A stretch of DNA of 64,000 bases from Gammaproteobacteria bacterium (GCA_963662545.2 CAXXLL010000002.1:1952001-2016000), one strand, 5' to 3'. Shown: positions 10,255-61,063, counted from the stretch's first letter. Notes: generated by a model not told the origin, from the sequence alone. Numbers and translations: made by a program.

Positions 10255-10416
10255 GGAACCTCTGAATAAGTCATGGTGCGTCTGAATGGTTCATGCAATG
10301 GTGCAGATCAAGGCACGAATCGCAGGTAATAGCGGGGACTAGGGCTAAGGTTCGTGACGTAAGGCTCCGCGATTTCATGGGCAAGGCAGGTGGGCCATGA
10401 CTTTTTCAGAGGTTCC
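10255..10416. mobile_element. MITE family A, copy 1 (162 bp)
   Basis: 22-bp TIRs GGAACCTCTGAATAAGTCATGG / CCATGACTTTTTCAGAGGTTCC, TTAG on both flanks; homologous to 34988-35149 and 36914-37075. Confidence 0.9.
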
Positions 10417-10436
10417 TTAGGTGCCAGTACCGGAGC

Positions 10437-10829
10437 TTATTGGTCGAGCGGGGCGAGGTTACCGATATTCTCTTCCCAGTTTCGCCCATCGAACATGCGG
10501 ATTTCCAGCGCTTCGATCATTTCCGGATCGATGCAATGCAGGTTGACGCTATAGCCCTGTGGGTGTGAGCGCGGCACGTAAAACGATTTCACACCGCAAA
10601 TGGAGCAGAACAAGTGCCGCGCAATTTCGGTATTGAACGTGTAATTCGTCAGTCTGTTTTCGCCTTGCAAGAGCCTGAAGCCACTCCGTGGGACGATTAA
10701 GTGCAGATATGCGGATTTGCGACAGATCGAGCAATTGCACTCTTCGACCTGCAATCGCCTCGGTGCATCGACCTCGAATCTGACTGCACCGCAATGACAG
10801 CTTCCTCGATGCGTTACTTTCTCAGCCAA
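10437..10829 (-). CDS. GFA / CENP-V family protein
   Basis: GSCHCGAVRF, CNCSICRK, FCSICG zinc motifs. Confidence 0.92.
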   Translation of the reverse strand: MAEKVTHRGSCHCGAVRFEVDAPRRLQVEECNCSICRKSAYLHLIVPRSGFRLLQGENRLTNYTFNTEIARHLFCSICGVKSFYVPRSHPQGYSVNLHCIDPEMIEALEIRMFDGRNWEENIGNLAPLDQ

Positions 10830-10913
10830 CGCCTAGCAGCCATCGGAAATCGCGCAGCGCCTGAAGTTTTCAATAGGAATTTCGTCGCTCACGGAAGGAT
10901 GTCTAAGCGCTGT

Positions 10914-11150
10914 CTAGTCGGCTTCCTGCTCGACGCACAAACCCCACATGACCTTGTATCGATTACCAGCGCTGCGCTGAACCGACCACAATGGCTCGTG
11001 AGGTTCGCGAGATAAGCCATTACCCCGCCATGATTCGGATGCAGAGGGGAACATCTCGCGCGTTGCTATGCCTGCGTTGATGAGGCGATCGCGGGTCGCG
11101 CAATACCAAACACCGTACGAATCGCAGTAGACTTCGATTCGATCAGTCAC
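10914..11150 (-). CDS. Small hypothetical protein
   Basis: 78-aa ORF with GTG start filling an intergenic gap; no motif. Confidence 0.4.
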   Translation of the reverse strand: MTDRIEVYCDSYGVWYCATRDRLINAGIATREMFPSASESWRGNGLSREPHEPLWSVQRSAGNRYKVMWGLCVEQEAD

Positions 11151-11452
11151 GCTACGTCCATCCCGGAGCCATAAGACAATGTTAGACTCTTACCTGATGG
11201 GGCGTAAAGCTATAACGAACGGTCCGTTGCAATTCGAGGATTCGTATAATTCGAAATGGGCAATTCGGTTCGGACCGACGATGACGAGCACGATATTTGA
11301 GGGTCGCAGAGCGCGCATTTTTGAAAAATGAGCGTAGATAAGGCGCTCGCCATACGCACCGTGCCAGCCTGCTAGAATCATATAGACGGACGCTGCGCGG
11401 AATAACAGGCGCAAGGCAGTCGTACCATAACTTATTCAAGGGTTTCTTAAGG

Positions 11453-12079
11453 ATGCGAAAGACTGTGGAACTCCCGTCTACCGAAAATGCCTTGCCCGGC
11501 CGTGACACGCCCATTGCAGTGCCGGCGAAGCACTTCGTCCTCGACACACCCCTCAAACCGCCGTTCCCCGAGAATAGCGAACGAGCTTATCTCGGCTTGG
11601 GGTGTTTCTGGGGCGCGGAAAAATGCTTTTGGAACCTGGAAGGTGTGCACTCGACGGCAGTTGGATACGCTGGCGGGCTCACGCCCAATCCAACCTACGA
11701 GGAAGTCTGCACCGGTTTGACCGGGCACAACGAAGTGGTGCAAATCGTGTTTCTTACCGAGCGCGTCAGCTATGCGCGTTTACTTGACATATTTTGGGAG
11801 GCCCACGACCCGACCCAGGGAATGCGCCAGGGTAATGATGCCGGTACCCAGTATCGCTCCGGCATCTATTTCGCGAATGACGAGCAGCGGCGCGCCGCCG
11901 AAGATTCACTCGCACGTTATCAGCAGGTCCTCGCCGCCGCGGGATACGGCGTCATCACCACTGAGATCATTCCCGCCCCGGTGTTTTATTTTGCCGAAGA
12001 CTATCATCAGCAATACCTCGCCAAGAATCCAAACGGCTACTGCGGATTGGGCGGAACCGGGGTGTCTTGCGCCGCATAA
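11453..12079 (+). CDS. msrA: Peptide methionine sulfoxide reductase A
   Basis: [45 protein letters not shown]. Confidence 0.97.
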
Positions 12080-12101
12080 AAAGGACGCCCCGAAGGGCGT
12101 C
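12078..12101 (-). terminator. Intrinsic terminator between convergent genes
   Basis: GACGCCC-cgaa-GGGCGTC hairpin with a T5 tail on the minus strand. Confidence 0.6.
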
Positions 12102-12163
12102 AGAGCGATTGCACGCGGGAGAAATGAAATTCAGGTTGCAGGAGCCCGGATATTGCCGTCGAA

Positions 12164-12697
12164 TCAAATGCGCCCGTCGTATTTGAATAAGCCCAGCATC
12201 TCAGCGGCGACTCGACCCGGTATCGGAATGAGATCAGCGCTTGGTTCAGCTGGCCTGGCATGATTGACCGTATTGAAATAGACATCGATCCAGTGCGGCG
12301 CTGCGCGGCGAGTCCGTGACGCCCGGCGCAGCTGAGTAATCACCTCATCCAGCGTGGTCAGGTGCACGCCCAATTGGAGGTCACCCGCCAGCGGAACAAA
12401 GGGTAACCCCCCATCAATGACCACTGGCTGAGTGTCCAGACCAGAATTTTCCAGGCCTTGTGCTGCGAAAACGCTATACGGCAACAAGAGCAACAGCGAC
12501 GAGATCAACATCCATCGCCAGCCCCGCTTTGCCGTATCGAGGGCTCGACCTGTCCGCCGATTTGAACCGGCGCCAATCTCGGCACTGGTGCCTGTAACAT
12601 TCGGTTTCGGCAAGACCGCGGACGGCCTATCGGGCAAGGACGCATCTACCGGCGGCGTCATTGAAAACTTATGCTTGGCCACTTTAGACATTTTCAT
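12164..12697 (-). CDS. Hypothetical membrane-anchored or exported protein
   Basis: Hydrophobic segment WMLISSLLLLLPYSVFA; overlaps the 3' end of the VPLP-CTERM gene; start uncertain. Confidence 0.5.
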   Translation of the reverse strand: MKMSKVAKHKFSMTPPVDASLPDRPSAVLPKPNVTGTSAEIGAGSNRRTGRALDTAKRGWRWMLISSLLLLLPYSVFAAQGLENSGLDTQPVVIDGGLPFVPLAGDLQLGVHLTTLDEVITQLRRASRTRRAAPHWIDVYFNTVNHARPAEPSADLIPIPGRVAAEMLGLFKYDGRI

Positions 12698-13286
12698 GAT
12701 GCTCCGAGATTTGCATCAATTCGGATTCGGAACCCGTTCCGCGACGCGTGAAACCGGCGAAGGCCATCGCTGACAGCATCAGCACCACGGAATTCGGCAG
12801 CGGCACGGCTGCGGCGCCCGGATTATTGAAATAGTTGTCGATCAATGACGTGTTGATGGCGGAGAATGCGGTCGTACTCGACCAGGCGTTGCTCCCCCGC
12901 TGTGTGGAGTCGAACATGAAGGTGCCGGAACCCTGGATGGTGTAGTTCACGCCGTCGAACAGCACGTTCGCCCATTGGAAACTGACCTGTGGGACCTGGT
13001 AATCGAATGTGAGGCGCAGCTGTCCTTGCGGGGGCTGTACAGTCGGACCCGAATACACGATCTCGGCAGGGGTTAGAACGTTGTTAATCCAGGTGTTCAT
13101 CTGCCCGCCGAAGCTGAGATTCGTAAACTGCAGTGCGGCCACGTCGTCCGAGAAGAAGAATCCGTAGTTCATCTCGTCGGTATTGGAGAACCGGATCGAT
13201 TGGGTTGCGGCGGGGGCGGCGAGCGCCCCTCCCATCAACATGAGGGCCAAAGTGTATTTGGCCAGTTTTTCCCATTTTGCGTGCAT
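12684..13286 (-). CDS. PEP-CTERM / VPLPA-CTERM sorting-signal surface protein
   Basis: Signal peptide; Ser/Thr/Asn-rich body; C-terminal VPLPNS + hydrophobic helix + RR. Confidence 0.82.
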   Translation of the reverse strand: MHAKWEKLAKYTLALMLMGGALAAPAATQSIRFSNTDEMNYGFFFSDDVAALQFTNLSFGGQMNTWINNVLTPAEIVYSGPTVQPPQGQLRLTFDYQVPQVSFQWANVLFDGVNYTIQGSGTFMFDSTQRGSNAWSSTTAFSAINTSLIDNYFNNPGAAAVPLPNSVVLMLSAMAFAGFTRRGTGSESELMQISEHHENV

Positions 13287-13321
13287 CGTTGTATCCAAAT
13301 AGCTTGATTTTGCCTAGATCG

Positions 13322-16431: not shown

Positions 16432-17190
16432 ATGATGCCGAAACAAACTTGGAATCCTGACAAGTACGCACGACATGCGGGGTTCGTAGCCGAACTCGGA
16501 GGCGATTTGATCGAGATGCTCGCCCCGGCACGGGGTGAAATGATCCTCGACCTCGGCTGCGGGGACGGGGCGCTCACCGCGAAGCTTCTATCACTTGGTT
16601 GCCGCGTCCTCGCCATCGACAGCAGCGCCGAACAGGTTGCAGCGGCGGCGGCGCGCAATCTTGACGCGCAGGTCGTGGACGCCGAGGCGATGACTTATGA
16701 AGCCGCTTTCGAAGGCGTGTTCAGCAACGCCGCCCTGCACTGGATGAAACGGCCCGAGGCCGTGATCGATGGCGTCTGGCGGGCGTTGCGTCCGGCGGGA
16801 CGATTCGTTGGCGAAATGGGCGGCGCGCGAAACGTACAGGCCGTGGTCGATGCCGTTACCAAAGTTCTCGGCGAGCGGGGCATTGACGCCGTGGCATGCA
16901 ATCCGTGGTTCTTCCCGGACGAAGCGACCTACCGTAAACTGCTTCAGGATCAGGGATTCGACGTCGAATTCATGCAACTGTTTCCGCGCCCAACGCCGCT
17001 CGACGGCGACATCGTGCATTGGCTGAAACTTTTCACGCAGTCCTTTGTTGCGGACGTCGATGAGAGCGAACACGAGGGAATTTATTCCGCCGTCAGCGCC
17101 CAGCTGGAAACTACCCTGCGAGACGATGACGGGAATTGGTTCGTGGATTACGTGCGCCTGCGTTTCAAGGCGATCAAGCCCGCGAGCTAA
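16432..17190 (+). CDS. Class I SAM-dependent methyltransferase (Tam-like)
   Basis: ILDLGCGDG, VFSNAALHW, DYVRLRF. Confidence 0.9.
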   Translation: MMPKQTWNPDKYARHAGFVAELGGDLIEMLAPARGEMILDLGCGDGALTAKLLSLGCRVLAIDSSAEQVAAAAARNLDAQVVDAEAMTYEAAFEGVFSNAALHWMKRPEAVIDGVWRALRPAGRFVGEMGGARNVQAVVDAVTKVLGERGIDAVACNPWFFPDEATYRKLLQDQGFDVEFMQLFPRPTPLDGDIVHWLKLFTQSFVADVDESEHEGIYSAVSAQLETTLRDDDGNWFVDYVRLRFKAIKPAS

Positions 17191-17214
17191 GGAACCTCTG
17201 AATAAGTCATGGTG
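17187..17214. repeat. Solo family-A MITE terminus
   Basis: CTAA + GGAACCTCTGAATAAGTCATGGTG, 24/24 match to the family-A left end; no internal part or second TIR. Confidence 0.85.
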
Positions 17215-17994: not shown

Positions 17995-18064
17995 TCGCTC
18001 TGATGGCGCTGACGGAGCAGGGCGATCAACTACGTTATCTGCGACGATGCGCAATCGATATTAG

Positions 18065-18325
18065 AACCTATCTCAAAATTATCCGCCTGTGCGTTGTGCG
18101 TGGGCGCGCGATGGTGAGGCGCAGTGCGCAGGGCTGAGTTCCGCTATGTACAAGCGCTGCAACGAAGCCAGCGCGCGCCCACGCGCAACCCGAGGCCTAA
18201 GGCGATTTTCACGCATTTCGGCGTTGCTCGTCGCTCATTTAGCTGATGCTTTGCCACGCTCCTCGCGCCTTGATACTCGGCGAAAATTGCTCCCGGCGCA
18301 CACGTGGATAATTTTGAGATAGGTT
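18065..18325. mobile_element. MITE family B, copy 1 (261 bp)
   Basis: 20-bp perfect TIRs AACCTATCTCAAAATTATCC / GGATAATTTTGAGATAGGTT, flanks TTAG / CTAA; inverted homolog at 36381-36642. Confidence 0.9.
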
Positions 18326-18352
18326 CTAATAACAGGTTGCATGCCTCGCCTT

Positions 18353-29673: not shown

Positions 29674-29675
29674 GA

Positions 29676-33910: not shown

Positions 33911-34959
33911 GATGCGTCGACAGCCTGCCAGTGAAGTTCACCCGGCGGGTCGAACACGACGATCGTCCCGGCCTTCGAGGATCGGGTGTGCCGCTTCCCG
34001 TCGCGCGTTCGACGTTCGAAGCTCATCTCGGCATCATTCACCGGCAGGCCGTAAAACGCGGGACCATTCAAGGATGCGAACGCCTCGAACCGATCGAGCG
34101 CGCGTTCTTCCTCGAACACCCGCAGGTATGCAGCCAGTGCGACCGGCGCATTGTAGATACCGGCGCATCCACAGTCTGATTCCTTCGTTGTTGCAGGGTG
34201 CGGCGCAGAGTCGGTACCGAGAAAGAAGCGGGCGTCGCCGGAACACGCGGCGCCACGCAAGGCGCGCCGGTGACGTTCGCGCTTAGCGAGCGGCAGGCAG
34301 TACATGTGAGGACGCAGGCCGCCGGCGAACATCGCATTGCGATTGATCATGAGATGATGCGGCGTGATCGTCGCCGTCAGCCAACGCGTGTCGCCGGCCA
34401 GAACGAAGTCAATCGCATCTGCCGTCGTAACGTGCTCGAACACGATCTTGAGTTCCGGATGGCGCTGTCGCAGCGGATCCAGCACGCGGTCGATGAAGAC
34501 CGCTTCGCGATCGAATACGTCGACGTCCGCATCGATTACTTCACCGTGCACGAGCAAGGGCAAGCCCACCCCGGACATCGCCTCGAACACACCGTCGAGC
34601 CGGCGGATATCGGTAACGCCCGCTTCCGAATGGGTCGTCGCGCCAGCCGGGTACAACTTGGCCGCGGTGAAAACTCCGTCGCGCGCGCCGGCAAGTAAAT
34701 CGTCGATTTGCGTAGTATCGGTCAGGTAACAAGTCATGAGGGGCTCGAATTGCGAACCATCGGGAAGACTCTTTTCGATACGCCGCCGGTAAGCATCGGC
34801 GTCCATCGCCAAGGTCACGGGCGGAGTGAGGTTCGGCATGACGATCGCGCGTCTGAAATGGCGCGCGGTGTCTGCGATCACGGCATCGAGCAGGGGCCCG
34901 TCGCGCAGATGAACGTGCCAGTCGTCGGGGTAGGGTATGGTCAATGAGGACTCGGACAT
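33907..34959 (-). CDS. pyrC: Dihydroorotase (homodimeric type)
   Basis: DDWHVHLRDG, IVMPNL, KLYPAGATT, HGEV, FEHVTT, YCLP, GTDSAPH. Confidence 0.97.
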   Translation of the reverse strand: MSESSLTIPYPDDWHVHLRDGPLLDAVIADTARHFRRAIVMPNLTPPVTLAMDADAYRRRIEKSLPDGSQFEPLMTCYLTDTTQIDDLLAGARDGVFTAAKLYPAGATTHSEAGVTDIRRLDGVFEAMSGVGLPLLVHGEVIDADVDVFDREAVFIDRVLDPLRQRHPELKIVFEHVTTADAIDFVLAGDTRWLTATITPHHLMINRNAMFAGGLRPHMYCLPLAKRERHRRALRGAACSGDARFFLGTDSAPHPATTKESDCGCAGIYNAPVALAAYLRVFEEERALDRFEAFASLNGPAFYGLPVNDAEMSFERRTRDGKRHTRSSKAGTIVVFDPPGELHWQAVDAS

Positions 34960-34987
34960 CGGTAGCTGAGATTAGCACGCGTGCTAG

Positions 34988-35149
34988 GGACCCTCTGAAT
35001 AAGTCATGGTGCGTCTGAATTGTTCATGCAATGGCGCAGATCAAGGCACGAACCGCAGGCCATAGCGGGAATTAGGGCTAAGGTTCGGAACGTAAGGCTC
35101 CGCAATTTCATGGGCAAGGCAGAAGTGCCATGACTTATTCAGAGGTTTC
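34988..35149. mobile_element. MITE family A, copy 2 (162 bp)
   Basis: TIRs GGACCCTCTGAATAAGTCATGG / CCATGACTTATTCAGAGGTTTC, flanks CTAG / TTAA. Confidence 0.9.
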
Positions 35150-35164
35150 TTAACAGGCCTGTCG

Positions 35165-36322
35165 CTACAACGCACCGGTTTTCTTCAACGCATCGACTTC
35201 GTCGAGGCTGAATCCCCAATCGACCAGCGCCGCGTCGTTATCCTGGCCGGCGAGTGGCGGTGCGCTCGGCACCTCAGGTGCGGTACGGCTGAAACGGGGC
35301 ATGGGCGCCGGTTGCGTGACGCCTTCGATCTCGATGAAAGCCTGGCGTGCCCGGTTGTGCGGGTGGCGCGGCGCTTCTTCGAAGTCGAGCACCGGCGCGT
35401 AACAGGCGTCCGTACCCAACAATAGTTGATCCCATTCATCACGCGTTCGCGTCTTGAATATCGCTTCGAACTTTTCCTTGAATTCAGGCCAGCGCTCGGC
35501 GTTCATACGGTCGTTCCTCAGACCCTCGTCCGTGACTTTTAGCAAGTCCAACAAGAGTTCATAGAACTGCGGTTCGGCGGCGGCAATGGTGATGTATTTG
35601 CCGTCGCTGGTCTCATAGGTATCGTAAAAATGCGCGCCGCCGTCGATGCGGTTTTTGCCTTTCTCTCGCCATGCCCCCTGCGCGTGAATGCCGTACATCA
35701 TGGTCGTCAACAACGCCGCGCCCTCACACATGGCGACATCGATGACCTGACCATGGCCCGATTCCCGCGCTTCGAAAAAGGCGCAAGCCATGCCGAAGGC
35801 GAGCATACAGGCGCCACCGCCGTAATCACCGACGTAATTTGCCGGCGCGTACGGCTTTTCGCCGGGGCGGCCAAGCAGGTGGAGCGCGCCGGCAATTGCA
35901 ATGTAATTGGCGTCATGGCCGGACGCGTGGGCAAGCGGCCCGGTCTGTCCCCAACCGGTCATGCGCCCGTACACGAGGCGTTGGTTGCGTTCCAGGCAAA
36001 CATCGGGCCCGAGGCCGAGGCGTTCAAGTACGCCTGGCCGAAAAGGATCGATCATACCGTCGGCTGAATCGAGCAGCTTTAAGGCCGCATCGACTCCCGT
36101 GGATTTTTTCAGATCGAGTGCGATCGAGCGTTTGCCCCGATTGAGCAGGCCGTACTTGCCGGGGTTGTAAGAATCCCATTTTTCGCCAGGATATGCCCGC
36201 ACGGGGATCTTTCGATCGATGCGCAACACTACTGCGCCCATATCTGACAGCATCATGCCGCACAGGGGGCCCGGACCGATGCCGGCCTGTTCGATGATGC
36301 GAAGTCCCGCTAATGGTCCCAC
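35165..36322 (-). CDS. Family III CoA-transferase (alpha-methylacyl-CoA racemase-like)
   Basis: GPLAGLR, GIGPGP, NRGKRSIALDLK, FRPGVLERLGLGP, GRMTGWGQ, GHDANY, DYGGG. Confidence 0.92.
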   Translation of the reverse strand: MGPLAGLRIIEQAGIGPGPLCGMMLSDMGAVVLRIDRKIPVRAYPGEKWDSYNPGKYGLLNRGKRSIALDLKKSTGVDAALKLLDSADGMIDPFRPGVLERLGLGPDVCLERNQRLVYGRMTGWGQTGPLAHASGHDANYIAIAGALHLLGRPGEKPYAPANYVGDYGGGACMLAFGMACAFFEARESGHGQVIDVAMCEGAALLTTMMYGIHAQGAWREKGKNRIDGGAHFYDTYETSDGKYITIAAAEPQFYELLLDLLKVTDEGLRNDRMNAERWPEFKEKFEAIFKTRTRDEWDQLLLGTDACYAPVLDFEEAPRHPHNRARQAFIEIEGVTQPAPMPRFSRTAPEVPSAPPLAGQDNDAALVDWGFSLDEVDALKKTGAL

Positions 36323-36380
36323 GTCGTTCTCCCGCGCTACGTGAGCGCTTTATGCGTTGGTGGTTTGATGACAAATCTAG

Positions 36381-36642
36381 AACCTATTGCAAAATTATCC
36401 GCGTGTGCGCCGGGGGCCATTTTCACGCAGTTCAAGGAGCGAGGAGCGTGGCAAAGCATAAGCTAAATGAGCGATGAGCAACGCCAAAATGCGTGATAAG
36501 GGGTCCCGCCCGAAGGGTTGTGCTCTGAAAGCGCGCTTGTTTCTTTGCAGCGCTTGTACATAGAGCAACTCAGCCCTGCGCACTGCGCCTCGCCATCGCG
36601 CGCCCACGCACAACGCGCATGCGGATAATTTTGAGATAGGTA
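36381..36642. mobile_element. MITE family B, copy 2 (inverted relative to copy 1)
   Basis: TIRs AACCTATTGCAAAATTATCCGC / GCGGATAATTTTGAGATAGGTA, CTAG on both flanks. Confidence 0.9.
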
Positions 36643-36646
36643 CTAG

Positions 36647-36803
36647 TGTGCTGTCCCGTAATAAACCTTCATAATTCGCTGGTCCTCGCACCACGCTGCG
36701 GCGTTGCTCGTCGTTGCCGTATTCCCGATACGACGCCTCCTCGCGCCTTGCACCGCGGCACGAGTCCTGCGCGACTTATCGAAGTTTATTACGGGACAGC
36801 ACA
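36647..36803. mobile_element. MITE family C, copy 1 (157 bp)
   Basis: 20-bp perfect TIRs TGTGCTGTCCCGTAATAAAC / GTTTATTACGGGACAGCACA, CTAG on both flanks; I see one mismatch to 41623-41779. Confidence 0.93.
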
Positions 36804-36913
36804 CTAGTGTATTGTCTTACAAGGGCGAGTAAGTAGCCGCCGCCCAGTTACAGGCACTTTTCCTAAGCGTGCGGGGGTTCGGTGCCGTCGAGAAGCAAAA
36901 CGTCGAGATCGAA

Positions 36914-37075
36914 GCAACCTCTGAATAAGTCATGGTGGGTCTGAATGGTTCATGCAATGGTGCAGATCAAGGCACGGATCGCCGGCCATAGCAGGGACTA
37001 TTAACAAGGTTCGTAACGCCGAACTGCGCGATTTCATGGGCAAGGCAGATGGGCCATGACTTATTCAGAGGTTCC
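36914..37075. mobile_element. MITE family A, copy 3 (162 bp)
   Basis: GCAACCTCTGAATAAGTCATGG / CCATGACTTATTCAGAGGTTCC-CTAA. Confidence 0.88.
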
Positions 37076-37300
37076 CTAAGACCTCATCCTCGCCCGTTTA
37101 TCCAACTGATTGAAAGATCTCGATTGCCTTCCCGAAGCCGACCGACTCCTCGTCGATGGCAGATCACATTGTAAAAAAGCGTTAATGCCGGTTCCGGTCT
37201 ATCCTGGGAGTGAGTATGATGCGCGGTCAACCCCGTGAATCGCGGCTGAAGAGCAGCGTCGAATTTCATCTCGCAAGCCAATGAGTGATCACTCGAGCCG

Positions 37301-38254
37301 ATGGTGCCGGTGAATTCCGAAGCGTCCGAAAAGAATACGGACGGCGCCGAGGTGAGCGCGGTCAACGGCGCCATATGCACGATTGACGGCAAGGATTGCA
37401 TCTATTATGACGGCTATTGGATCCGAAATTACGAAGTTCCCAAAAACAAGGCCGCCGCACGCAGGGAACTCATCGATCAGCTGACCAAGCGGGTTTTCCA
37501 CCACACCGAACCCGGCATTAATACACCCGGCTACAACCTCGACGATGCCCGGCATGCCTTCGAGAATGAAACGCAGCCAGCGCGCAAACGCGTTAACGCC
37601 GCCATGCTGGCCGGCGCACTCCTGAATCGCGGTTCGGACATCTTCACGATGATTTTCGAGCTGAATAAACGGGGTATCGAAATTACCAAATCGAACGAAC
37701 TCATGCTCGAGTGCGAGTCCTGTTTTCTCGAGGCTTTCGACCTCGGCAAACACGTCAAGCATTACAGCGGCGAGGAGGGGCTCGACGAACTCTGGGGCGA
37801 ACCGCTGAAGGTTTTTTCCATGCCGATCGCCAGTTTCTACGAGTCGCGCTATATCAAGATTGCCCAGACCATGGCAGCCATCGATACCGTTGCCGCGCGA
37901 ATCCTGGAAACCTTTTTGAGCGTACGGGGTTTCGAGAATCTTCCTGAAAGCGTCGTTGCCTATGCCAAGGCGGCCAAACTCGAAAGCGAAACCATCAAAT
38001 CCGACCCTGCGATCTTCGAAGTGTGGCCAGATTTCGTCGTGACCGGTGACAAACTCGCCGCGTTCGAGCCGACACGGGCGATGACGAAGGAAGATCGTGC
38101 CATTTCGGTCCAAGGCGCTAAACTCGTACGCGAGGGCAAGCGCTTGATCGAATGGATCGCGTTTGCGCGGGTACCGATGCCGAAGACAACCGAAAAATAT
38201 TTTCAGGAATGTGCGGCCTTCAAGAACGCCGTCGAGGCGGCCCGCGCCGCCTGA
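37301..38254 (+). CDS. Hypothetical protein, predicted mostly helical
   Basis: 317-aa ORF with coding-like composition; YYDGYWIR, FHHTEPGINTPG, AMLAGALLNR, DELWGEP, FYESRYIKIA. Confidence 0.8.
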   Translation: MVPVNSEASEKNTDGAEVSAVNGAICTIDGKDCIYYDGYWIRNYEVPKNKAAARRELIDQLTKRVFHHTEPGINTPGYNLDDARHAFENETQPARKRVNAAMLAGALLNRGSDIFTMIFELNKRGIEITKSNELMLECESCFLEAFDLGKHVKHYSGEEGLDELWGEPLKVFSMPIASFYESRYIKIAQTMAAIDTVAARILETFLSVRGFENLPESVVAYAKAAKLESETIKSDPAIFEVWPDFVVTGDKLAAFEPTRAMTKEDRAISVQGAKLVREGKRLIEWIAFARVPMPKTTEKYFQECAAFKNAVEAARAA

Positions 38255-38284
38255 TCGCCCGCTCGCTGCGGCGCGCGAAATCCG

Positions 38285-39727
38285 GTGGACGCGCTTTCGA
38301 AAATCGCAAGTGTCGTCGGCCCAGCCAACCTCCTCACTGACACAAAGCTGACGGCGCGCTATCTCGTCGACGAACGCCGTCTGTACCAGGGACGGGCACG
38401 CGCGGTCGTGCGTCCTGGTTCGACCGATGAAATGAGCCGGGTCGTGCGAATCTGTTACGAAAACAGCATCGCAATGGTGCCCCAGGGTGGTAACACCGGA
38501 TATTGCGGCGGTGCGACGCCTGACGACTCGGGCTCGCAACTGGTGATCAGCCTCGAACGCCTGAATCGCGTGCTCGAGGTCGACAGCAGCGGCCATTCTA
38601 TGACCCTCGAAGCGGGCGTCGTCCTGGCGAGCGCGCAACAGGCAGCGGTCGAACACGGTTTGCTGTTTCCATTGAGCATGGGCTCGGAGGGCAGCTGCCA
38701 GATCGGGGGCAATCTGTCGACTAACGCCGGCGGGGTCGTGGTGCTCAAATACGGGACGGCCGGAGATCTCGTGCTGGGCCTGGAGGTGGTCTTGCCCGAC
38801 GGCCGCATCCTGCCAGGCTTGTCGGCCTTGCGAAAGGACAACACCGGCTATGATCTCAAACGACTGTTTCTGGGGGCGGAAGGAACCCTGGGAATAATTA
38901 CGGCGGCGGTCGTCAAGCTATTCCCGCGCGCACGCTCATCCTGTGTGGCTTGGGCCGCCGTAACCGACATCGAAGCGGCCTGCGAGTTGCTGGCCAGATT
39001 ACGTGCGGAGAGCGGCGACACCGTGACGTCTTTTGAATACGTTTCATCGTTGTCTCTGGCCCACGTCATCGCAGCCCTGACCCATGTCAGGCAGCCGCTC
39101 GAAGGTGATTACACCCACTACGTGCTCACGGAATGTGCGACGGACGCCGTGCCCATCGAACAGGCCTTCGCGACAGCCATGGCGGACGGGCTCGTTCTTG
39201 ACGCGACGCTTGCCCAAAGCGAAGCACAGCGACGCGCTTTGTGGCAGATCCGCGAATCGATTCCAGAAGCGGAGAAACGGTTGGGCGGATCGATCAAGCA
39301 CGACGTTTCAGTCACCATTATCGACGTCCCGCGCTTTATCGAACACGCGCGTCAGTCGATCGAAGCGGAGTGGCCGGATGCGCGCCTGTCGATTTACGGC
39401 CATATTGGCGACGGCAATGTGCATTTCAACGTGCTGGCGCCAGGCAACGCCGATGCCCTCGCTTTTAAGCGATCCCACGGCGACCGTATCAGCCGCATCG
39501 TTCACGACCTCGCGCACGAAATGAACGGAAGCTTCAGTGCGGAGCATGGCATCGGCCAACTCAAACGGAATTTACTCGCTCAATATGCCGGGGATGTTTC
39601 GCTCGAACTCATGTGCACGATCAAACGCGCGCTAGACCCCAAAGGTCTGATGAATCCAGGCAAAGTGGTGGCGTTGGAAGCACCGCGCGCCAGCGACGGC
39701 ATAAAAAGGGATGATAGGTCTGGATAA
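38285..39727 (+). CDS. FAD-linked oxidoreductase (D-2-hydroxyacid / D-2-hydroxyglutarate dehydrogenase-like)
   Basis: PQGGNTG, GSCQIGGNLSTNAGG, LRKDNTGYDL, GAEGTLGIIT, KHDVSV, GHIGDGNVH, SAEHGIG, MNPGK. Confidence 0.92.
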   Translation: MDALSKIASVVGPANLLTDTKLTARYLVDERRLYQGRARAVVRPGSTDEMSRVVRICYENSIAMVPQGGNTGYCGGATPDDSGSQLVISLERLNRVLEVDSSGHSMTLEAGVVLASAQQAAVEHGLLFPLSMGSEGSCQIGGNLSTNAGGVVVLKYGTAGDLVLGLEVVLPDGRILPGLSALRKDNTGYDLKRLFLGAEGTLGIITAAVVKLFPRARSSCVAWAAVTDIEAACELLARLRAESGDTVTSFEYVSSLSLAHVIAALTHVRQPLEGDYTHYVLTECATDAVPIEQAFATAMADGLVLDATLAQSEAQRRALWQIRESIPEAEKRLGGSIKHDVSVTIIDVPRFIEHARQSIEAEWPDARLSIYGHIGDGNVHFNVLAPGNADALAFKRSHGDRISRIVHDLAHEMNGSFSAEHGIGQLKRNLLAQYAGDVSLELMCTIKRALDPKGLMNPGKVVALEAPRASDGIKRDDRSG

Positions 39728-39822
39728 GTCCATATGCTTCAATTTCGACGCCTGAGACCGATCTTGCCGACCGTCATCGAAGCGTCTCCGGCGCTCGTAT
39801 AACAACGTACCTGATCATCGGA

Positions 39823-41016
39823 ATGCAGGAGCACTACGACTACCTGGTGGTTGGCGCGGGCATCGTCGGCCTGGCGACGGCGCGACGGCTGCAGGACAGG
39901 TTCCCCGATGCCGCAGTCGCGGTACTGGAGAAGGAAGCCCGTGTTGCAACCCATCAAAGCGGTCACAACAGCGGCGTGATTCATGCGGGCGTGTACTATG
40001 CACCCGGCAGTATGAAAGCACGCTTGTGCCGCGCAGGGATTCGCCGAACGATAGAATTTTGCGAGAACAACGCCGTCGAATATCGCCGTTGCGGCAAGCT
40101 CATCGTCGCCACCAGCGACGCCGAGCGCGAACGTTTAGCCGGCATCGGTGATCGCGCCACGAAGAACGGCTGTCACTGCGAGTATCTGGATGGAATCGCG
40201 ATTCGCGATCTCGAGCCCAATGTGACGGGCGTCGCCGCACTGAAAATTACCGATACCGGCATCGCCGATTATGCGGCGCTGTGCCGGACACTCGCAGTCC
40301 TCATCGAAGACGGCGGGGGCACAGTCAGCCTGAACACGCGAGTAGAATCGATCGACGAGCGAACTAACGAAGTTCGGATAGGAAGCAATCGCGGACCATT
40401 CACCGCGAAACACCTGATCGTATGCGGCGGCCTGCAAGCGGATCGCCTTGCGCGCATGGCGGGCCTCGAGATCGATTTTGCGATCGTACCGTTTCGCGGC
40501 GATTACTACCGATTACCGCAAGCGCGTTCAACGCTCGTCTCCACCCTGATCTATCCGGTGCCCGATCCGCGCTTACCCTTTCTTGGCGTTCATTTGACCT
40601 TGACGGTCGATGGTTCGATTACGGTAGGACCCACCGCCATGCTTGCATTCGAGCGCGAAGCGTATCGCCGTTGGGCGTTCGACGTTCGCGACGCGCGGGA
40701 AATGTTCGGGTTCGCCGGTACCTGGCGAATGCTGGCCCGTTTTCCACGGGCCGGTTTAACCGAGTTGGTGCATGCCGCGAGCCGCAAGCGTTACTTGAAC
40801 CTGGTGCGAAATTATTGTCCGGCCCTGAGGCTCGACGATCTGCGCGATCATGAATGTGGTATTCGCGCGCAGGCGGTAACGCGTGCAGGCAATATGATTC
40901 ACGATTTCCTATTGAAACGTACGCCGCGCAGCGTTCACGTTTGCAACGCACCTTCGCCGGCGGCGACCTCCGCCTTCCCGATCGCGGACACTATCGTCGC
41001 GAGCCTGGCGGATTGA
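39823..41016 (+). CDS. lhgO: L-2-hydroxyglutarate oxidase
   Basis: GAGIVGLA, HQSGHNSGVIHAGVYY.PGS.KA, PFRGDY, YPVPDP.LPFLGVH, NAPSPAATS. Confidence 0.93.
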   Translation: MQEHYDYLVVGAGIVGLATARRLQDRFPDAAVAVLEKEARVATHQSGHNSGVIHAGVYYAPGSMKARLCRAGIRRTIEFCENNAVEYRRCGKLIVATSDAERERLAGIGDRATKNGCHCEYLDGIAIRDLEPNVTGVAALKITDTGIADYAALCRTLAVLIEDGGGTVSLNTRVESIDERTNEVRIGSNRGPFTAKHLIVCGGLQADRLARMAGLEIDFAIVPFRGDYYRLPQARSTLVSTLIYPVPDPRLPFLGVHLTLTVDGSITVGPTAMLAFEREAYRRWAFDVRDAREMFGFAGTWRMLARFPRAGLTELVHAASRKRYLNLVRNYCPALRLDDLRDHECGIRAQAVTRAGNMIHDFLLKRTPRSVHVCNAPSPAATSAFPIADTIVASLAD

Positions 41017-41034
41017 CGAACCGGCGCCATTTAG

Positions 41035-41622
41035 ATGAACGCAAAGCCGCTCAAACGCTGTCCCTGGGTCGACCTCGATAAGACCGACTACGTCGCGTAT
41101 CACGATACGGAGTGGGGCGTGCCGGTCTACGACGATCAAGTCATGTTTGAATTCCTAACGCTCGAAGCCGCCCAGGCGGGCTTGAGCTGGTACACAGTCC
41201 TGAAAAAGCGCGAACATTACCGCAAGGCTTTCGCAGCCTTCGATCCGGTAAAGGTCGCGCGCTTCACGCCGAAGCGGATCGAAGTGCTGTTGCAGAACAA
41301 AGGGCTGATCCGCAATCGATTGAAAATCGAAGCAGCCGTTGGCAACGCACGGGCTTTTCTCGAAGTGCAGCAGGCCTATGACGGTTTTTGCAACTACATC
41401 TGGTCGTTCGTCGAAGGCAAGCCAAAAGTCAACGTGCTGCGCAAACGCGCGGACTTCGTCGCGACGAGCCCCGCGTCAGACCGCCTGAGCAAGGATCTAA
41501 AAAAGCGCGGATTTAAGTTCGTTGGTACGACCATCGTCTACGCGCACATGCAGGCCACCGGGCTCGTCAATGACCACACCGTCTCGTGTTTTCGGCGCAG
41601 GGAAATCATCGCCGGGTACTAG
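41035..41622 (+). CDS. tag: DNA-3-methyladenine glycosylase I
   Basis: RCPW, YHDTEWG.P, LEAAQAGLSW, IRNRLKI, KKRGFKFVG, MQATGLVNDH...C. Confidence 0.96.
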   Translation: MNAKPLKRCPWVDLDKTDYVAYHDTEWGVPVYDDQVMFEFLTLEAAQAGLSWYTVLKKREHYRKAFAAFDPVKVARFTPKRIEVLLQNKGLIRNRLKIEAAVGNARAFLEVQQAYDGFCNYIWSFVEGKPKVNVLRKRADFVATSPASDRLSKDLKKRGFKFVGTTIVYAHMQATGLVNDHTVSCFRRREIIAGY

Positions 41623-41779
41623 TGTGCTGTCCCGTAATAAACCTTCATAATTCGCTGGTCCTCGCACCACGCTGCGGCGTTGCTCGTCGTTGCCGTATTC
41701 CCGATACGACGCCTCCTCGCGCCTTGCATCGCGGCACGAGTCCTGCGCGACTTATCGAAGTTTATTACGGGACAGCACA
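41623..41779. mobile_element. MITE family C, copy 2 (157 bp)
   Basis: Same TIRs as 36647-36803; left CTAG contains the tag stop codon. Confidence 0.93.
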
Positions 41780-41783
41780 CTAG

Positions 41784-41831
41784 AATCTATCTCTAAATTA
41801 TTCGCGTATGCGAATAATTTAGAGATAGATT
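41784..41831. repeat. TIR-only family-B-like mini element (perfect 22-bp hairpin)
   Basis: AATCTATCTCTAAATTATTCGC-gtat-GCGAATAATTTAGAGATAGATT, CTAG on both flanks. Confidence 0.85.
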
Positions 41832-41877
41832 CTAGACATCCACGTCCTTAGAACGCGGTTGTTTAGCGAGTGTTTAT

Positions 41878-43137
41878 TCAGAATTTGACGGGAATACGCG
41901 TCCATTCGCCATCCCTGAACCGGATGGCGGTTGCGCGTCCGCCCGTGACCACCATCGATCCATCGGGCATCGCGATGGGCGTCTTCAGCCACGACAGGAG
42001 ATTCAATACCGTTCGATCGGCGAGCTGCCACTCGCCACCGTCCAGCAGGCCGATGAGACCGACCGCACCCGCGATGACGGGTTTCTCGTCATCGCCGATC
42101 GTAACCCCGAAAATACCTTCGCGACCCGAACTGGGATTATCCGACCAGGTCTCGCCGCCGTCGTGGCTCACCTGACTCACGCCGCCGGCACCGGTCAGCC
42201 ACATCTCATCGCCTTTTTGAACGCCGGCGAGCCAGTAAGCGGGTTCCGGTTCGTGGGGTACGATCTCGGTATCCCGTCTCACCCAGGTCGCGCCATTGTC
42301 CTCGCTTTGCAGGATCATGCCGAATTCACCGGCAATGGTCACCTTACCGGATTCCACCAGGACGACATTCCACGATACGTCGCCGGGCCGGAACGGCGGA
42401 CCGGGATTGAAATCGAGTTCGATCGTCGCCGGCGGGTCCTGGTCAAGTGGTGTGCTGACCTGCACGAATCCTGTGTCCGCAAGTACTTCGTAATGAGCGG
42501 GCGTCTCCGCGGGTTTACCGCCGACCGTAGCGCTGAACTTGATCGAATCGAGTTTCAGGTTACTGATGCCCAGATACCAATCCGCCTCGTGGTCGCCGAC
42601 AAACCTCACCTGGGGCTGCTTGACCTCGCTTTCCGTGATGTCGACGATTTCGAATTCCCTGCCGTCCGTACTCCTGGCCAGTAAACCGCGCCCGCCTACG
42701 GCCCATACATTACCGCCTTCGGCCGAGATATCGAGTACGGGCTCATTGTATTCCGACAATGCCGCGATGAATTCGATGGTCTTGCCATCGAACCAATAGA
42801 CACGGCCGGTCGACGACCCGATCAGCACGTCGGTATCGGACATTTTTCCAAGCGCGGTGAAATCTTCATTGGGGACGTCTGCGATGAGATGGAGTTGCGC
42901 GGAGGACTCACCGACCTCGAGCGTGCCGACGAGACCGTGATGGCCCGTGACGACGATGCGCTCGAGCCCCGGCAGGTAGGCTGCATCGAGAAAATCAGTC
43001 CGCTGCACCGAGCGTTTCGTTGCAGTCGACGCGCCGCCATAGGCAAGGGTAAGTGCCGGGACCAGGCCCATCAACGCGAGCAGAACCAGGGCCCCGGAAA
43101 AAGATCGTAATCGGTTTGCAATCATCGCCTCAGCCAT
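41878..43137 (-). CDS. YCF48-like (BNR/Asp-box beta-propeller) exported protein
   Basis: Signal peptide; VGGRGLLARSTDG, AGEFGMILQSEDNGATW, SHDGGETW. Confidence 0.85.
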   Translation of the reverse strand: MAEAMIANRLRSFSGALVLLALMGLVPALTLAYGGASTATKRSVQRTDFLDAAYLPGLERIVVTGHHGLVGTLEVGESSAQLHLIADVPNEDFTALGKMSDTDVLIGSSTGRVYWFDGKTIEFIAALSEYNEPVLDISAEGGNVWAVGGRGLLARSTDGREFEIVDITESEVKQPQVRFVGDHEADWYLGISNLKLDSIKFSATVGGKPAETPAHYEVLADTGFVQVSTPLDQDPPATIELDFNPGPPFRPGDVSWNVVLVESGKVTIAGEFGMILQSEDNGATWVRRDTEIVPHEPEPAYWLAGVQKGDEMWLTGAGGVSQVSHDGGETWSDNPSSGREGIFGVTIGDDEKPVIAGAVGLIGLLDGGEWQLADRTVLNLLSWLKTPIAMPDGSMVVTGGRATAIRFRDGEWTRIPVKF

Positions 43138-46985: not shown

Positions 46986-47168
46986 GTCCCCATCATGGCA
47001 GCCTCCCCCCTACGCAGCCACGATCTTGGGTAGGCACGCATATAAGCCCCTAAATTTTCCCGATAAAGGTCGCGGACGTTTGCAGGGCACCCGTGTCTCA
47101 CCCGTGTGTATTACGCGCCCGACGCGGACCGAATCTTCGTCACGAATGAACACAAGATATGGAAAATA

Positions 47169-47342
47169 CTACCGCGTTGTCCCGTAATAATCTTCAATCA
47201 AGTCGCCCGGCTCTCCGGCTGGTAGCCGGCGCGAAGCGGCGTCTTTATCCAGACATATTCGTCCGCAACACAATTCTGTCGGGTACAGAATTGGACGCGA
47301 AGCGCGCTCACAGGTTGAGCGCCAGGGATGGCGCAAATCCAA
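47169..47342. repeat. Truncated chimeric MITE remnant: family-C-like left end with family-D-like internal hairpins
   Basis: CTAC-CGCGTTGTCCCGTAATAATCTTCA resembles the C TIR; 47272-47342 resembles 8859-8925; no right TIR found. Confidence 0.5.
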
Positions 47343-54314: not shown

Positions 54315-54415
54315 AACCACGAAGAACACAAAGAACACGGAGGGAAGAAAGAAAATGACCTTGTACATGCCATATTTTACTTTTTTGCTCCGTGTTCTTT
54401 GCGTTCTTCGTGGTT
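54315..54415. repeat. Inverted-repeat element with 9-nt periodic arms, copy 2
   Basis: 27/28 IR AACCACGAAGAACACAAAGAACACGGAG / CTCCGTGTTCTTTGCGTTCTTCGTGGTT. Confidence 0.8.
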
Positions 54416-58637: not shown

Positions 58638-58689
58638 CTCGGATTCTTCGCTGTCACCATGGCGTTCGAATTTCGGCGCGGCGGATGCT

Positions 58690-58752
58690 TGTAGGCGCCC
58701 GCTCGCGGGCGAGCCGGCCGGGGCCCCATTCGCCGGCAAGCCGGCTCCTACA
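58690..58752. repeat. GTAG-family REP doublet (REPIN-like)
   Basis: TGTAGGCGCCCGCTCGCGGGCGA ... TTCGCCGGCAAGCCGGCTCCTACA in inverted orientation, each GTAG + short hairpin. Confidence 0.75.
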
Positions 58753-58793
58753 TCTGGTTTCTCCAGGAAGGGGCCAAGATCTTCGAAAACAAA

Positions 58794-59729
58794 TCACCTA
58801 ATCGCTATCGGATTGATGATCATCTGGACGGTACCCGTCATGCGCGCCGGCCCAAGCACGAACATGAATTCATACGCCTTGTCGGCGGCGAGTTCCCGCG
58901 TATCCATGTTTTCGAGAATGTAAATACCGGCGTAAGTGATGAGGATCTGGTGCACCTTGTAGAGCACATTCTCCGTTTCGGGCGGTAACACTTCGAGACC
59001 CCAGGTGTCGGCGCCGACCGCCATCACGTCTTTCTCGACGAGGTACTCGGCACCGCTGATGCCGAGACCCGGTTCCGCCTTGCCGAACCGCACCGGATCA
59101 GACTCGATGATTTCCAGCCATCCGGAATGGAACAGCACGACGTCACCTTTCTCGATGCTTACACCCTGTTTCTTTTCACACGCAGCTATGTCTTCGCGCG
59201 TGTAGGGCGTGCCTTCCGGCAGCATGTCTTTACCCATGCAGCTCGCCATATTGAGCAGGACGCCACGGGTAACAATCGGCGGCAGGTCTTCCATGCCGAA
59301 TTTCGTCACGCCGTCGACTTTGGCGAAATCCCGGGCCAGATTGCCGTTATAGAACACGCCGTCGGTCGCTGCATGGCCCAGGCCATCGAGCTGTGAACCG
59401 ACACCGATCCAACCGGCGATGATGTCGTCGAGAAAATTGAACTTGTTTGAACCGTAGGAGTCACCGTTGTACTGATTCGGATAGACGATACGAATGTTGA
59501 ATGTCCGGGGAGGAAAGGCCGGCGTCTCGTCGTTCGTCTCGATGCCAAGACGATAAGTTTTGCCCGTCTTGATGAGCTTGGCCGCCTTCAAGGTCAGTTC
59601 CGGCCCGAGCATATTGAACGAACCCAAGGTGTCGTCTTGACCCCATTTCGAGGGCCACCATTTCTCCTCGGCGCTGGTCATGCCGGTACACGCCGATGCG
59701 ATAATCAGCATAAGCAAACGAACCATCAT
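58794..59729 (-). CDS. Cyclase (kynurenine formamidase-like) family protein with signal peptide
   Basis: WG.DD.LG..N, SQLDGLGH, IVTRGVLL, GDVVLFHSGW, EPG, GADTWGLE, ILEN, NPIAIR. Confidence 0.88.
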   Translation of the reverse strand: MMVRLLMLIIASACTGMTSAEEKWWPSKWGQDDTLGSFNMLGPELTLKAAKLIKTGKTYRLGIETNDETPAFPPRTFNIRIVYPNQYNGDSYGSNKFNFLDDIIAGWIGVGSQLDGLGHAATDGVFYNGNLARDFAKVDGVTKFGMEDLPPIVTRGVLLNMASCMGKDMLPEGTPYTREDIAACEKKQGVSIEKGDVVLFHSGWLEIIESDPVRFGKAEPGLGISGAEYLVEKDVMAVGADTWGLEVLPPETENVLYKVHQILITYAGIYILENMDTRELAADKAYEFMFVLGPARMTGTVQMIINPIAIR

Positions 59730-59790
59730 TGTTATCTCCCGTTGATTGACCGCGCGATTCTAACGCGAAAGGCATTCTTGTCGTTCGGGT

Positions 59791-60900
59791 TCAGGCAAAC
59801 TCGGCGCGAATCGACGCCCCGTGTTCGTCCAGCGCCGGGACGCGGGCCGGTTGCGGCGCCTCGTCTCCCGTGCGCCGCACCAGTGATACCCGCTGACCCG
59901 AGGACACCACCTCCTTTTTTACGAGCGCGGGATGGTGCTGCAAATCACTGATATCGTTGATGTTACCGCAGGCGATACCCGCCTTCTCGAGCCTCGCCGC
60001 CATCTCTGCGCGGTTGAATTGCGTAAAAAAGGCCTCGATTTCCCCGCGCAGGCCGTCCTTGTTTTCGACGCGCGACATATTGGTCTTATAGCGCAGGTCT
60101 TCGGTCAACGCCGGGCGCCCGAGAATTTCGGTACACAGCTGCATCCATTCGCGCTGATTCTGCACGACGATGAAGATCGGTCCGTCCAAAGTTTCGAACG
60201 CGCCATAGGGTGCTATCTGTGCGTGGTCCATACCGGTCCCGCCCAGGAGCTTGCCGCCATATTCGTAAGTCGCCAAAGGTACTGCGAGCCATTCCGAGGT
60301 CACTTCGAACAGCGATACTTCGACGTGCGCTCCGCGTTCATCCCGTGCGCGACGGATCAGCGCTTTTAAAATTTCGCCGTAAGCGGTGAGGCCGGTGGAA
60401 ATATCACAGATCGAAGCACCCACCTTTGAAGGATGTCCCGGTGGCCCGGTTACCGAGCACAGGCCCGATTCCGCCTGGATCAGAGCGTCATAGGCCTTCA
60501 TTCCGGCATAAGGTCCGGTCTGGCCATAACCCGAAATACTGCACATCACCAGGCGGGGATTCAGCGCCTTGACCGCAAAGTAGCCGAAGCCCAGGCGATC
60601 GACCGCACCCGGACGTAGATTCTGAATAAAAACATCCGCACGCTGAATAATCGTCGTCAGCAAGGTCCGGTCGCCCTCACGCTTGAGATCGACCGCCAGC
60701 GATTCCTTGCCGGCATTGAGCCAGACGAAATATCCACTTTCACCGTTGATAACATCATCATAGGCTCGGGCGAAATCGCCTTCCAGGCGTTCGAGCTTGA
60801 TCACCCTCGCACCGCCCTCGGCCAGCAGTCGGCTACAGTAGGGTGCAGCGACTGCCTGTTCCAGCGAGACGACGAGCAATCCGTCCAGGGAAGCGGTCAC
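59791..60900 (-). CDS. Family III CoA-transferase (CaiB/BaiF)
   Basis: LEQAVAAPYCS, GDFARAYD, WLNAGKES, QNLRPGA, SISGYG..GPY, KAYD.LIQAESG. Confidence 0.92.
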   Translation of the reverse strand: MTASLDGLLVVSLEQAVAAPYCSRLLAEGGARVIKLERLEGDFARAYDDVINGESGYFVWLNAGKESLAVDLKREGDRTLLTTIIQRADVFIQNLRPGAVDRLGFGYFAVKALNPRLVMCSISGYGQTGPYAGMKAYDALIQAESGLCSVTGPPGHPSKVGASICDISTGLTAYGEILKALIRRARDERGAHVEVSLFEVTSEWLAVPLATYEYGGKLLGGTGMDHAQIAPYGAFETLDGPIFIVVQNQREWMQLCTEILGRPALTEDLRYKTNMSRVENKDGLRGEIEAFFTQFNRAEMAARLEKAGIACGNINDISDLQHHPALVKKEVVSSGQRVSLVRRTGDEAPQPARVPALDEHGASIRAEFA

Positions 60901-60909
60901 GAATTGTAG

Positions 60910-61063
60910 TGCGCCGTCCCGCGAAAAACTTTCATAATTCGCTGGTCTTTTTCATCCCCAGCCGCGCTCGTCCTTGCGTAGAGCCCGCTACGCGGCGTCC
61001 TCGCGCCTTGCCAGAAACGAAAAATCCAGCGCGACTTACGCAACTTTTTCGCGGGACGGCACA
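60910..61063. mobile_element. MITE family C, diverged variant (154 bp)
   Basis: TIRs TGCGCCGTCCCGCGAAAAA / TTTTTCGCGGGACGGCACA, flanks GTAG / CTAG; shares TTCATAATTCGCTGG and GCGCGACTTA with C copies. Confidence 0.85.

Follow-up and report, generated by a model that had tools for sequence, protein, structure and literature searches.

Core-bearing elements in the window

[quoted passage not shown] A first-pass annotation had placed ten such modules in the window and described them as a covarying fold carried as cargo in MITEs with unrelated terminal inverted repeats (TIRs). All ten were recovered with the sequences and on the strands described (10/10), together with the deviant flanks of four of them (GACG, CAAGGA, AAAG and GCGG), the helices ACGAAYC/GGTTCGK, GCAGTGC/GCGCTGC and GCGAGGAG/CGACGAGC, and the variant at 60.9 kb (GCGAGGAC/GGACGAGC, apex GCGTAG/CTACGC). 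Eight carriers hold the modules; they belong to three inverted-end repeat families, A, B and C, and each is flanked by TA, the exception being the left side of the third A copy. The usual one-core element is about 160 bp long (TA, an arm of about 55 nt, the 50-nt core, an arm of 55-58 nt, TA); two-core elements are about 265 bp long, with the cores facing each other on opposite strands, usually one of a Watson-Crick and one of a G.A type. The carriers and one related coreless element are:

10254..10417, + strand: family A MITE, copy 1, 164 bp long with TA at either end; core 10309-10359, 5' arm 55 nt, 3' arm 58 nt
18064..18326, unstranded: family B two-core MITE (263 bp, TA-flanked) with two facing cores, Watson-Crick type at 18115-18164 (+) and G.A type at 18222-18272 (-)
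34987..35150, + strand: family A MITE, copy 2; core 35042-35092
36380..36643, unstranded: family B two-core MITE in reverse orientation to the copy at 18064..18326; G.A-type core 36433-36483 (+), Watson-Crick-type core 36543-36592 (-)
36646..36804, - strand: family C MITE, C1 (159 bp); G.A-type core 36702-36750 (-); its insertion point is the TA that closes the B copy at 36380..36643
36913..37076, + strand: family A MITE, copy 3, left flank GA rather than TA; core 36968-37018
41622..41780, - strand: family C MITE, C2, 99% identical to C1; core 41678-41726 (-)
41783..41832, unstranded: B-type element of only two terminal repeats and no core (50 bp, TA-flanked), adjoining C2
60909..61064, - strand: family C MITE from a subfamily whose 3' flank has no AAC; core at 60962-61010 (-), in which the helix-closing pair has gone from G:C to C:G and the apical stem differs

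The nested or abutting insertions share TA/CTAG sites at 36642-36646 (second B copy and C1) and 41780-41834 (C2 and the TIR-only B element). A lone family A terminal repeat, 25 nt following a TA with no further element, lies at 17190-17214, and a stretch like a C-type terminal repeat (78-79% identity to C ends) lies at 47163-47198, for which BLAST found no second copy.

The ten cores can be aligned over 61 columns, nearly gap-free. From 5' to 3' they consist of CAAGGC, helix 1 with 7 bp, an internal loop that is small and rich in purines (in the Watson-Crick type, GCA on the 5' side and AA on the 3' side), a helix 2 of 6-8 bp, an apical loop of 5-6 nt and, beyond the returning strands, AACG, mostly with a C after it. 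There are two kinds of helix 1, a Watson-Crick/wobble kind in family A and one B core, and a G.A kind in the other B core and in C, which reads G:C, C:G, G.A, A.G, N:N', G.A, A.G. The flanks themselves may pair as A.G, G:C and G.A (5' AGG facing 5' ACG), which would be a motif also present within the G.A-type helix. The pair between the tandem G.A steps is mostly G:C, is A:T in two loci from other genomes (L053, L056), and is C:G in a third (L059), in Gemmatimonadota copies and in one subfamily of genome G002; one locus (L055) has G:C, G:C in place of the first tandem G.A, and the G084 lineage has C.A where others have A.G. The G.A steps are thus kept while the middle pair varies, and this, with the L055 and G084 substitutions, supports the tandem G.A pairing proposed in the first pass. 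A kink-turn was considered for these pairs and rejected, the bulge and the order of the G.A pairs being unfit when judged by eye against the rules for that motif.

Covariation and strand preference of the core

Pairing in the helices is far above that of displaced alignments, both within this genome and across phyla, and the covariation of the module helices claimed in the first pass is strong in both sets. In 49 cores of the window genome, 68.4% of cells are paired, against 23.9-33.3% with the 3' partners slid along by 1-3 columns, and none of 500 shuffles attains the observed values. A covariance model trained on these 49 cores gave 88 matches in other taxa (86 distinct, from 78 loci), where 89.0% of cells are paired against 24.0-43.4% when slid, 233 cells are changed on both sides against 77.1 +/- 6.5 in shuffles, and the covariation score was unreached in 500 of 500 shuffles. 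This second alignment was fitted to the model, and its loci had been found with a pattern fixing the flanks and four apical pairs, so that flank conservation in the cross-phylum sets is partly built in; the five free helix-1 pairs and the outer helix-2 pairs, which the search did not bias, show all four Watson-Crick types. The copies are kin, and p-values are accordingly too strong. Family A alone shows modest covariation, with two linked double changes (T:G/T:A to G:C, and C:G to A:T) for which many intermediates are present while single copies decay throughout; mutual information within the family is dominated by subfamily linkage and is uninformative on structure.

Circularity was avoided in a core-blind control in which genomes were searched for C-type end pairs only. 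Of the family's 81 genomes, 13 have such pairs (5 of 18 genera), and among 17 aligned elements the exact CAAGGC is present in 14, the flanks have diverged in two and the interior is of another kind in one (L194). In this sample the arm segments toward the ends are less well kept than helix 1 and the flanks of the core.

The fold is also strand-specific, as had been proposed. Among 110 distinct sequences, 48 G.T/T.G cells stand against 9 A.C/C.A cells at the five free helix-1 pairs, and 35 against 6 at two helix-2 pairs. The sense strand, which reads CAAGGC to AACG, is also the more stable one in predicted folds, whose energies ignore G.A pairs:

A cores: sense strand more stable in 80 of 95
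cross-phylum cores: sense strand more stable in 78 of 110
cross-phylum cores with 55/57-nt arms: sense strand more stable in 100 of 108 (mean -82.8 vs -71.3 kcal/mol)
A arms alone: sense strand more stable in 112 of 113
C arms alone: sense strand more stable in 13 of 13
cross-phylum inner arms: sense strand more stable in 83 of 111

For single elements, A copy 1 folded as RNA gives -77.6 kcal/mol for the sense and -55.9 kcal/mol for the other strand, and C1 folded as DNA gives -52.3 and -44.6. Because arms and full elements favour the sense strand as well, the whole element, beyond the core, is by these predictions shaped for folding on one strand, as a rod. Taken as comparative sequence evidence, the pairing and its asymmetry indicate selection for a fold in one particular strand, where both the paired positions and the unpaired flank bases are maintained.

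Distribution, element ends and descent

Genome-wide, BLAST at 80% or more of full length, with overlaps removed, gives 132 A, 11 B and 25 C copies, and a search with anchors by type gives 114 A-type, 31 G.A-type and 15 Watson-Crick B-type cores, one of the last being a 53-nt match that is seemingly due to chance. TA stands on both sides of 90 of the 132 A copies and 21 of the 25 C copies. Family B exists in addition as single-core forms and as about ten TIR-only forms of about 50 bp. For family C a partner was found in a 1,159-bp element (G000:C2:710903-712061) that has 36-48 nt in common with each end and codes, spread over two frames, for HTH_23/28/29/32 and DDE_3 domains, a set that we take, following Pfam usage, to be the architecture of the IS630 family of insertion sequences (ISs); no autonomous partner of A or B was found in the genome. 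A derivation of the 5' flank of the core from the ribosome-binding region of the partner's transposase gene was rejected, since it is the opposite end of the IS that the core-sense 5' arm matches.

The covariance model makes at least 150 matches in the genome (150 of 150 scored candidates). Inspection of 27 of them, the weakest together with others from the lower half of the score list, placed 25 in A copies, one in a truncated A copy and one in a B-like element with other ends, and none outside such elements. The flanks taken by themselves are a poor guide: base composition predicts about 159 occurrences of the strict flank pattern and 406 are present, an excess that includes both the MITE copies and a many-copy IS fitting by chance, and because this IS (at least 52 near-identical copies by a looser pattern) matches fortuitously, the flank pattern alone is non-specific. 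A loose regular-expression search for further carriers in the genome returned mainly noise. Plasmid records gave no BLAST match to 36370-37085, and contigs of four DNA sequencing runs over 34000-42000 break at the repeats and provided no usable presence/absence joint.

Core-bearing elements have themselves been entered by other mobile DNA. An IS630-type IS with a 380-aa transposase and another IS with a 460-aa open reading frame are inserted within A cores elsewhere in the genome, and the apical loop of family C cores is a landing site of a 63-65-bp multi-hairpin micro-element at four loci outside the window (G000:C3:2237380-2237630, C3:2354075-2354325, C2:2168118-2168438 and C3:1649278-1649745), the inserts totalling about 65, 63, 137 and 304 bp, in what appear to be one to several tandem copies. 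A distinct inverted repeat without a core, with 42-nt arms of 86% complementarity, lies in the window at 54315-54415 and belongs to another repeat family with about ten partial or complete copies in the genome.

Searches of other genomes with the covariance model, a test suggested by the first-pass annotation, found the core far beyond the genome of the window. Among relatives, 24 of 61 genomes (own included) and 16 of 42 genera contain matches, with 19 of 36 positive in the same family and 4 of 24 in other families of the class. A scan of contigs with the strict pattern, one genome per species, gave at least 117 stretches. Among the first 80, for which taxon titles were taken, are Comamonas, Acidovorax, Polaromonas, Curvibacter, Roseateles, Chromobacterium and Nitrosospira, with Burkholderiales among the groups that have the core; Halopseudomonas, Alteromonas, Psychromonas, Methylophaga, Chromatiales and Lysobacterales, from other Gammaproteobacteria; Paracoccaceae; and Gemmatimonadota/Longimicrobiales, Acidobacteriota/Thermoanaerobaculia, Clostridia, Eubacteriales and Endomicrobia. 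The core is no phage feature, since only four pattern matches occur in 2.9 million viral contigs. In folded examples from other phyla the core again lies within TA-flanked inverted ends of varied sequence. A metagenome-assembled genome of Longimicrobiales holds three head-to-tail core-bearing copies of 174 bp, spaced by exactly 174 bp (L109, 5580-6100), and two further loci (L107 and L113) hold similar pairs of elements at 171 and 162 bp.

No recurrent neighbouring protein was found within 2.5 kb of the 117 loci in other taxa, where the survey gave nothing beyond genes in synteny between close relatives and spurious frames of high GC content, and tblastn found no IS630 transposase beside the core in about 150 loci. 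Rfam 15, whose search had likewise been proposed, has no family matching the module: at gathering score there were no matches in the window or in nine loci of other phyla, and at E <= 10 the segment 36300-37150 yielded only a chance snoRNA match (E 6.8).

Within elements whose ends could be called, the core mostly lies at about 55 nt from the terminus. Automatic calling yielded TA-flanked end pairs for 38 of 99 distinct elements, and in 28 of these the 5' terminus lies 51-56 nt from the core, whatever the TIR; the distance from the core to the 3' end is 54-57 nt in 17 elements and 142-172 nt in another 17, two classes that correspond to the one-core and the two-hairpin forms. The window copies fit this geometry (A, 55/58; B, 51-54; C, 54/56 nt). 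Paired matches about 110 nt apart were found at 12 loci of relatives, always facing, with the + core first and the - core second (12/12), and with one Watson-Crick and one G.A-type core in 11 of the 12.

Of the claim that the module rides in MITEs with unrelated TIRs, the three distinct families with inverted ends stand, whereas "unrelated" overstates the difference, because the family ends, for all their divergence, have a loose consensus, TA targets and one geometry in common. The idea of cargo in different transposon ends was not supported either, given the common TA target, the IS630-type partner of one carrier, the loose end consensus, the 51-56-nt geometry and the asymmetry of the arms. 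Judged from these sequences, one MITE superfamily with diverging ends and common descent fits better than repeated capture of a cargo. The module is best explained as the conserved centre of an old superfamily of IS630-type MITEs that spans phyla, is non-coding and inserts at TA, and the simplest reading of the ends is that they follow IS630-type transposases as the specificities of these enzymes shift, the centre being retained.

Possible roles of the core and its relation to known systems

We tentatively favour, as the leading proposal and with no more than modest conviction, a core that is a cis-acting recognition centre working as a single strand, DNA or RNA and preferably folded single-stranded DNA (ssDNA), in the service of the element itself; it builds on the patterns in sequence described above. 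The element would act as a single strand, namely as folded ssDNA exposed at replication forks or in transfer; the core would nucleate the fold and be the site that a putative conserved protein recognises, and would serve the element's persistence or amplification rather than regulation of adjacent host genes. An orientation bias with respect to replication bears on this proposal. GC skew assigns the sense strand to the leading-strand template in 72 of the 114 A copies (p = 0.006), and the bias has the same direction in all four segments, of which the smallest is only 6 to 5. Hairpins on the lagging-strand template are prone to deletion, and depletion of the stabler strand from that template suggests that in living cells ssDNA does take up the sense hairpin. 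The cumulative skew itself suggested that C2 and C3 form one chromosome with its origin near C3:1.72 Mb and its terminus near C2:1.86 Mb.

Several observations weigh against this proposal. The replication bias is modest and GC-skew-based, with p ranging from 0.006 to 0.11 over local skew windows; the cross-phylum sets came from searches that fix or favour the flanks, whose conservation is in part a product of construction, and kinship among copies overstates the p-values; and the C-type element L194 has another core. The core is also dispensable for movement: about ten TIR-only B copies of about 50 bp exist, and the C subfamily without the 3'-flank AAC has been amplified both in the window genome and in G002. 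Basic mobilisation does not depend on the core. IS630/Tc1-type transposases are, moreover, known to be double-strand cut-and-paste enzymes, and present knowledge of them calls for no single-strand step. For ISY100, one study reports that the transposase alone suffices in vitro (PMC2170065).

A possible but less probable alternative is that the folded form is RNA, arising from read-through or end-driven transcripts, as a protective, processing or insulating hairpin (for example a nuclease-resistant hairpin that limits insertion damage to host transcripts) or as a protein-binding small RNA. The G.U-type asymmetry and the tandem G.A pairs are classic RNA signatures, and in the two-core elements each core is sense for a transcript from the nearer end (12 of 12 paired loci). 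Other bacterial MITEs act as RNA hairpins, among them Correia elements with RNase III, and ERIC (PMC2229807, cited in part). Against this reading, A cores in tandem contexts lie 36 times in the same and 37 times in the opposite orientation to neighbouring genes (crude gene calls, as for all gene contexts here), so that no gene-orientation bias exists; no convincing internal promoter or terminator was found, with one sigma-70 promoter and two terminators where shuffles give 0.5 and 0.9, none of them in a position to drive the core; the inspected apical loops are unlike the usual extra-stable RNA tetraloops; and a replication-linked bias is unexpected for RNA.

Within the favoured single-strand proposal, a bolder and rather unlikely version, drawn by analogy, is that the core marks a single-stranded stage of IS630/Tc1-mariner-type MITEs, in which the element would fold back as ssDNA at replication forks or on transferred DNA, with the core as a host-readable signal for loading, priming or protection. 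If true, its logic would be comparable to that of the integron attachment site attC or of a single-strand origin, it would provide a replicative route and so explain the excess of MITEs over their parent ISs, and it would explain the two-core design, in which each strand has its own sense core at about 55 nt from its 5' end.

It is improbable that the core has no function of its own and was merely inherited from an ancestral MITE, the hairpin being kept through the palindrome, master copies or arm-templated repair. The arms covary as well, recombinant B copies have mismatched arm types, mobility does not need the core, and paired and unpaired positions decay at similar rates in individual copies, all of which such an origin would accommodate. 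Against it stands the total of 83 G.T against 15 A.C cells over seven pairs, roughly 5:1, because a strand-neutral process should equalise the two; so does the core-blind sample, in which unpaired flanks are kept better than the adjoining paired arm segments, and conservation across phyla while every free helix-1 position uses all four Watson-Crick pair types.

A double-stranded DNA site through which a bending or architectural protein would bring the element ends together is, in our estimate, very unlikely. The central position at a fixed distance from both ends would suit such a site, and an element of about 160 bp needs sharp bending for its ends to meet. Correia elements, for whose central IHF site such a role has been proposed, are a precedent (PMC2229807, cited in part). 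The helices of the core vary in sequence while pairing is kept, though, whereas a duplex site should conserve sequence, and a strand asymmetry is meaningless in duplex DNA. Least probable of all is a host-domesticated regulatory element (terminator, attenuator or small-RNA gene family): many copies are intergenic and none of 114 A cores lies inside a gene, yet their distribution over tandem, convergent and divergent gaps (73/15/26) is near the background (2487/715/716), no orientation is preferred, no neighbouring gene recurs in the 117 loci of other taxa, and T-run terminators are not above shuffled expectation, all of which argues against host-level use.

The comparisons with known elements that follow cite each paper for part of its text. 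RUP of Streptococcus pneumoniae (107 bp) with its proposed partner IS630-Spn1 is likewise short and non-coding, with TIRs, a TA target, IS630-like ends and mobilisation in trans; the 55 + 50 + 55-58-nt design and the cross-phylum core found here are not described for RUP in the part cited (PMC2229807). Correia/NEMIS elements of Neisseria resemble ours in their TA-flanked inverted repeats, long hairpins and central motif, and are known to have effects as RNA hairpins, whereas their centre is a duplex IHF site restricted to the genus and ours is a covarying, strand-specific hairpin found in several phyla (PMC2229807). REP/REPIN/BIME sequences, which are mobilised by RAYT and thought to work as ssDNA or RNA, share the strand-specific imperfect hairpins with an unpaired foot tag, often in facing pairs, and the wide distribution (PMC3733652). 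Identity with them was rejected, the flanks here being CAAGGC and AACG(C) and not the GTAG/CGTC tag; REPs are moreover 20-40 nt long against about 50 nt, and our core is embedded in TIR-bounded, TA-flanked elements (PMC3733652). A link to RAYT was discarded as well: the genome has seven Y1_Tnp matches, the nearest 4.9 kb from a core, and the flanks of the five longest Y1_Tnp genes carry other repeats. One of these RAYT-like genes (G000:C3:129419-129907) stands between GTAG-tagged palindromes, a classical REP/RAYT pair unrelated to the core.

The attC sites of integrons are recognised as a folded single strand, with conserved flank motifs, covarying helices, extrahelical bases and strand choice. 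The core is like them in its short conserved flanks, variable covarying helices, unpaired bases and strand choice; measured against the attC consensus, its conserved flanks are non-complementary, no integrase or other neighbour recurs in the 117 loci, and the elements have TIRs and TA duplications, so that identity was rejected. Single-strand origins of the ssoA type are similar in size (about 160 nt), in acting on one strand and in one orientation, and in their large imperfect hairpin, which is recognised as ssDNA by host RNA polymerase and has a conserved short motif in the apical loop; they are known from Gram-positive plasmids, not transposons (PMC5703833, PMC4598088). The RSB motif of these origins (with up to four mismatches) is present in 0 of 168 own and 1 of 105 other-taxa elements and the CS-6 hexamer in only 5 of 168 own elements, which led us to reject this identity too (motifs as in the cited part of PMC4598088). 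A 2024 survey of 50 genomes from the Breaker laboratory lists abundant "mobile/repeat sequence candidates", among them MRSC-65-2, judged a selfish element that possibly acts as DNA; it resembles our elements in being very abundant, in several phyla and in dozens of copies per genome, with a single long covarying stem, and may be distinct from them, its text description defining it by repeated UYCCGG (PMC11109978), which is no feature here. TYCCGG occurs 0.01 times per element in A, 0.45 in B, 0 in C and 0.42 in other taxa.

No description of the core was found in searches of the literature on bacterial MITEs, IS630, MITE covariation, Burkholderiales or Chunjie, and the parts consulted of reviews on bacterial MITEs describe no core common to several families. 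The kind of element, a MITE of the IS630 type, is known; its variant with a strongly constrained core is apparently undescribed.

The usual view of MITEs is of two ends that bind transposase, with nothing meaningful between them; in these elements that middle is the part conserved best, a strand-specific hairpin whose unpaired bases and geometry are fixed. The elements form a very large natural collection of sequences in which a helix based on tandem G.A pairs covaries, and a covariance model of the core is a sensitive annotation marker for repeats that are often mistaken for riboswitch-like leaders. IS630-type transposons are among the most widespread transposon superfamilies, and in the MITEs described here the centre has been retained across Proteobacteria, Gemmatimonadota, Acidobacteriota and Firmicutes as the ends diverged, which points to an unrecognised partner, a protein or a process, that may read the folded single strand.

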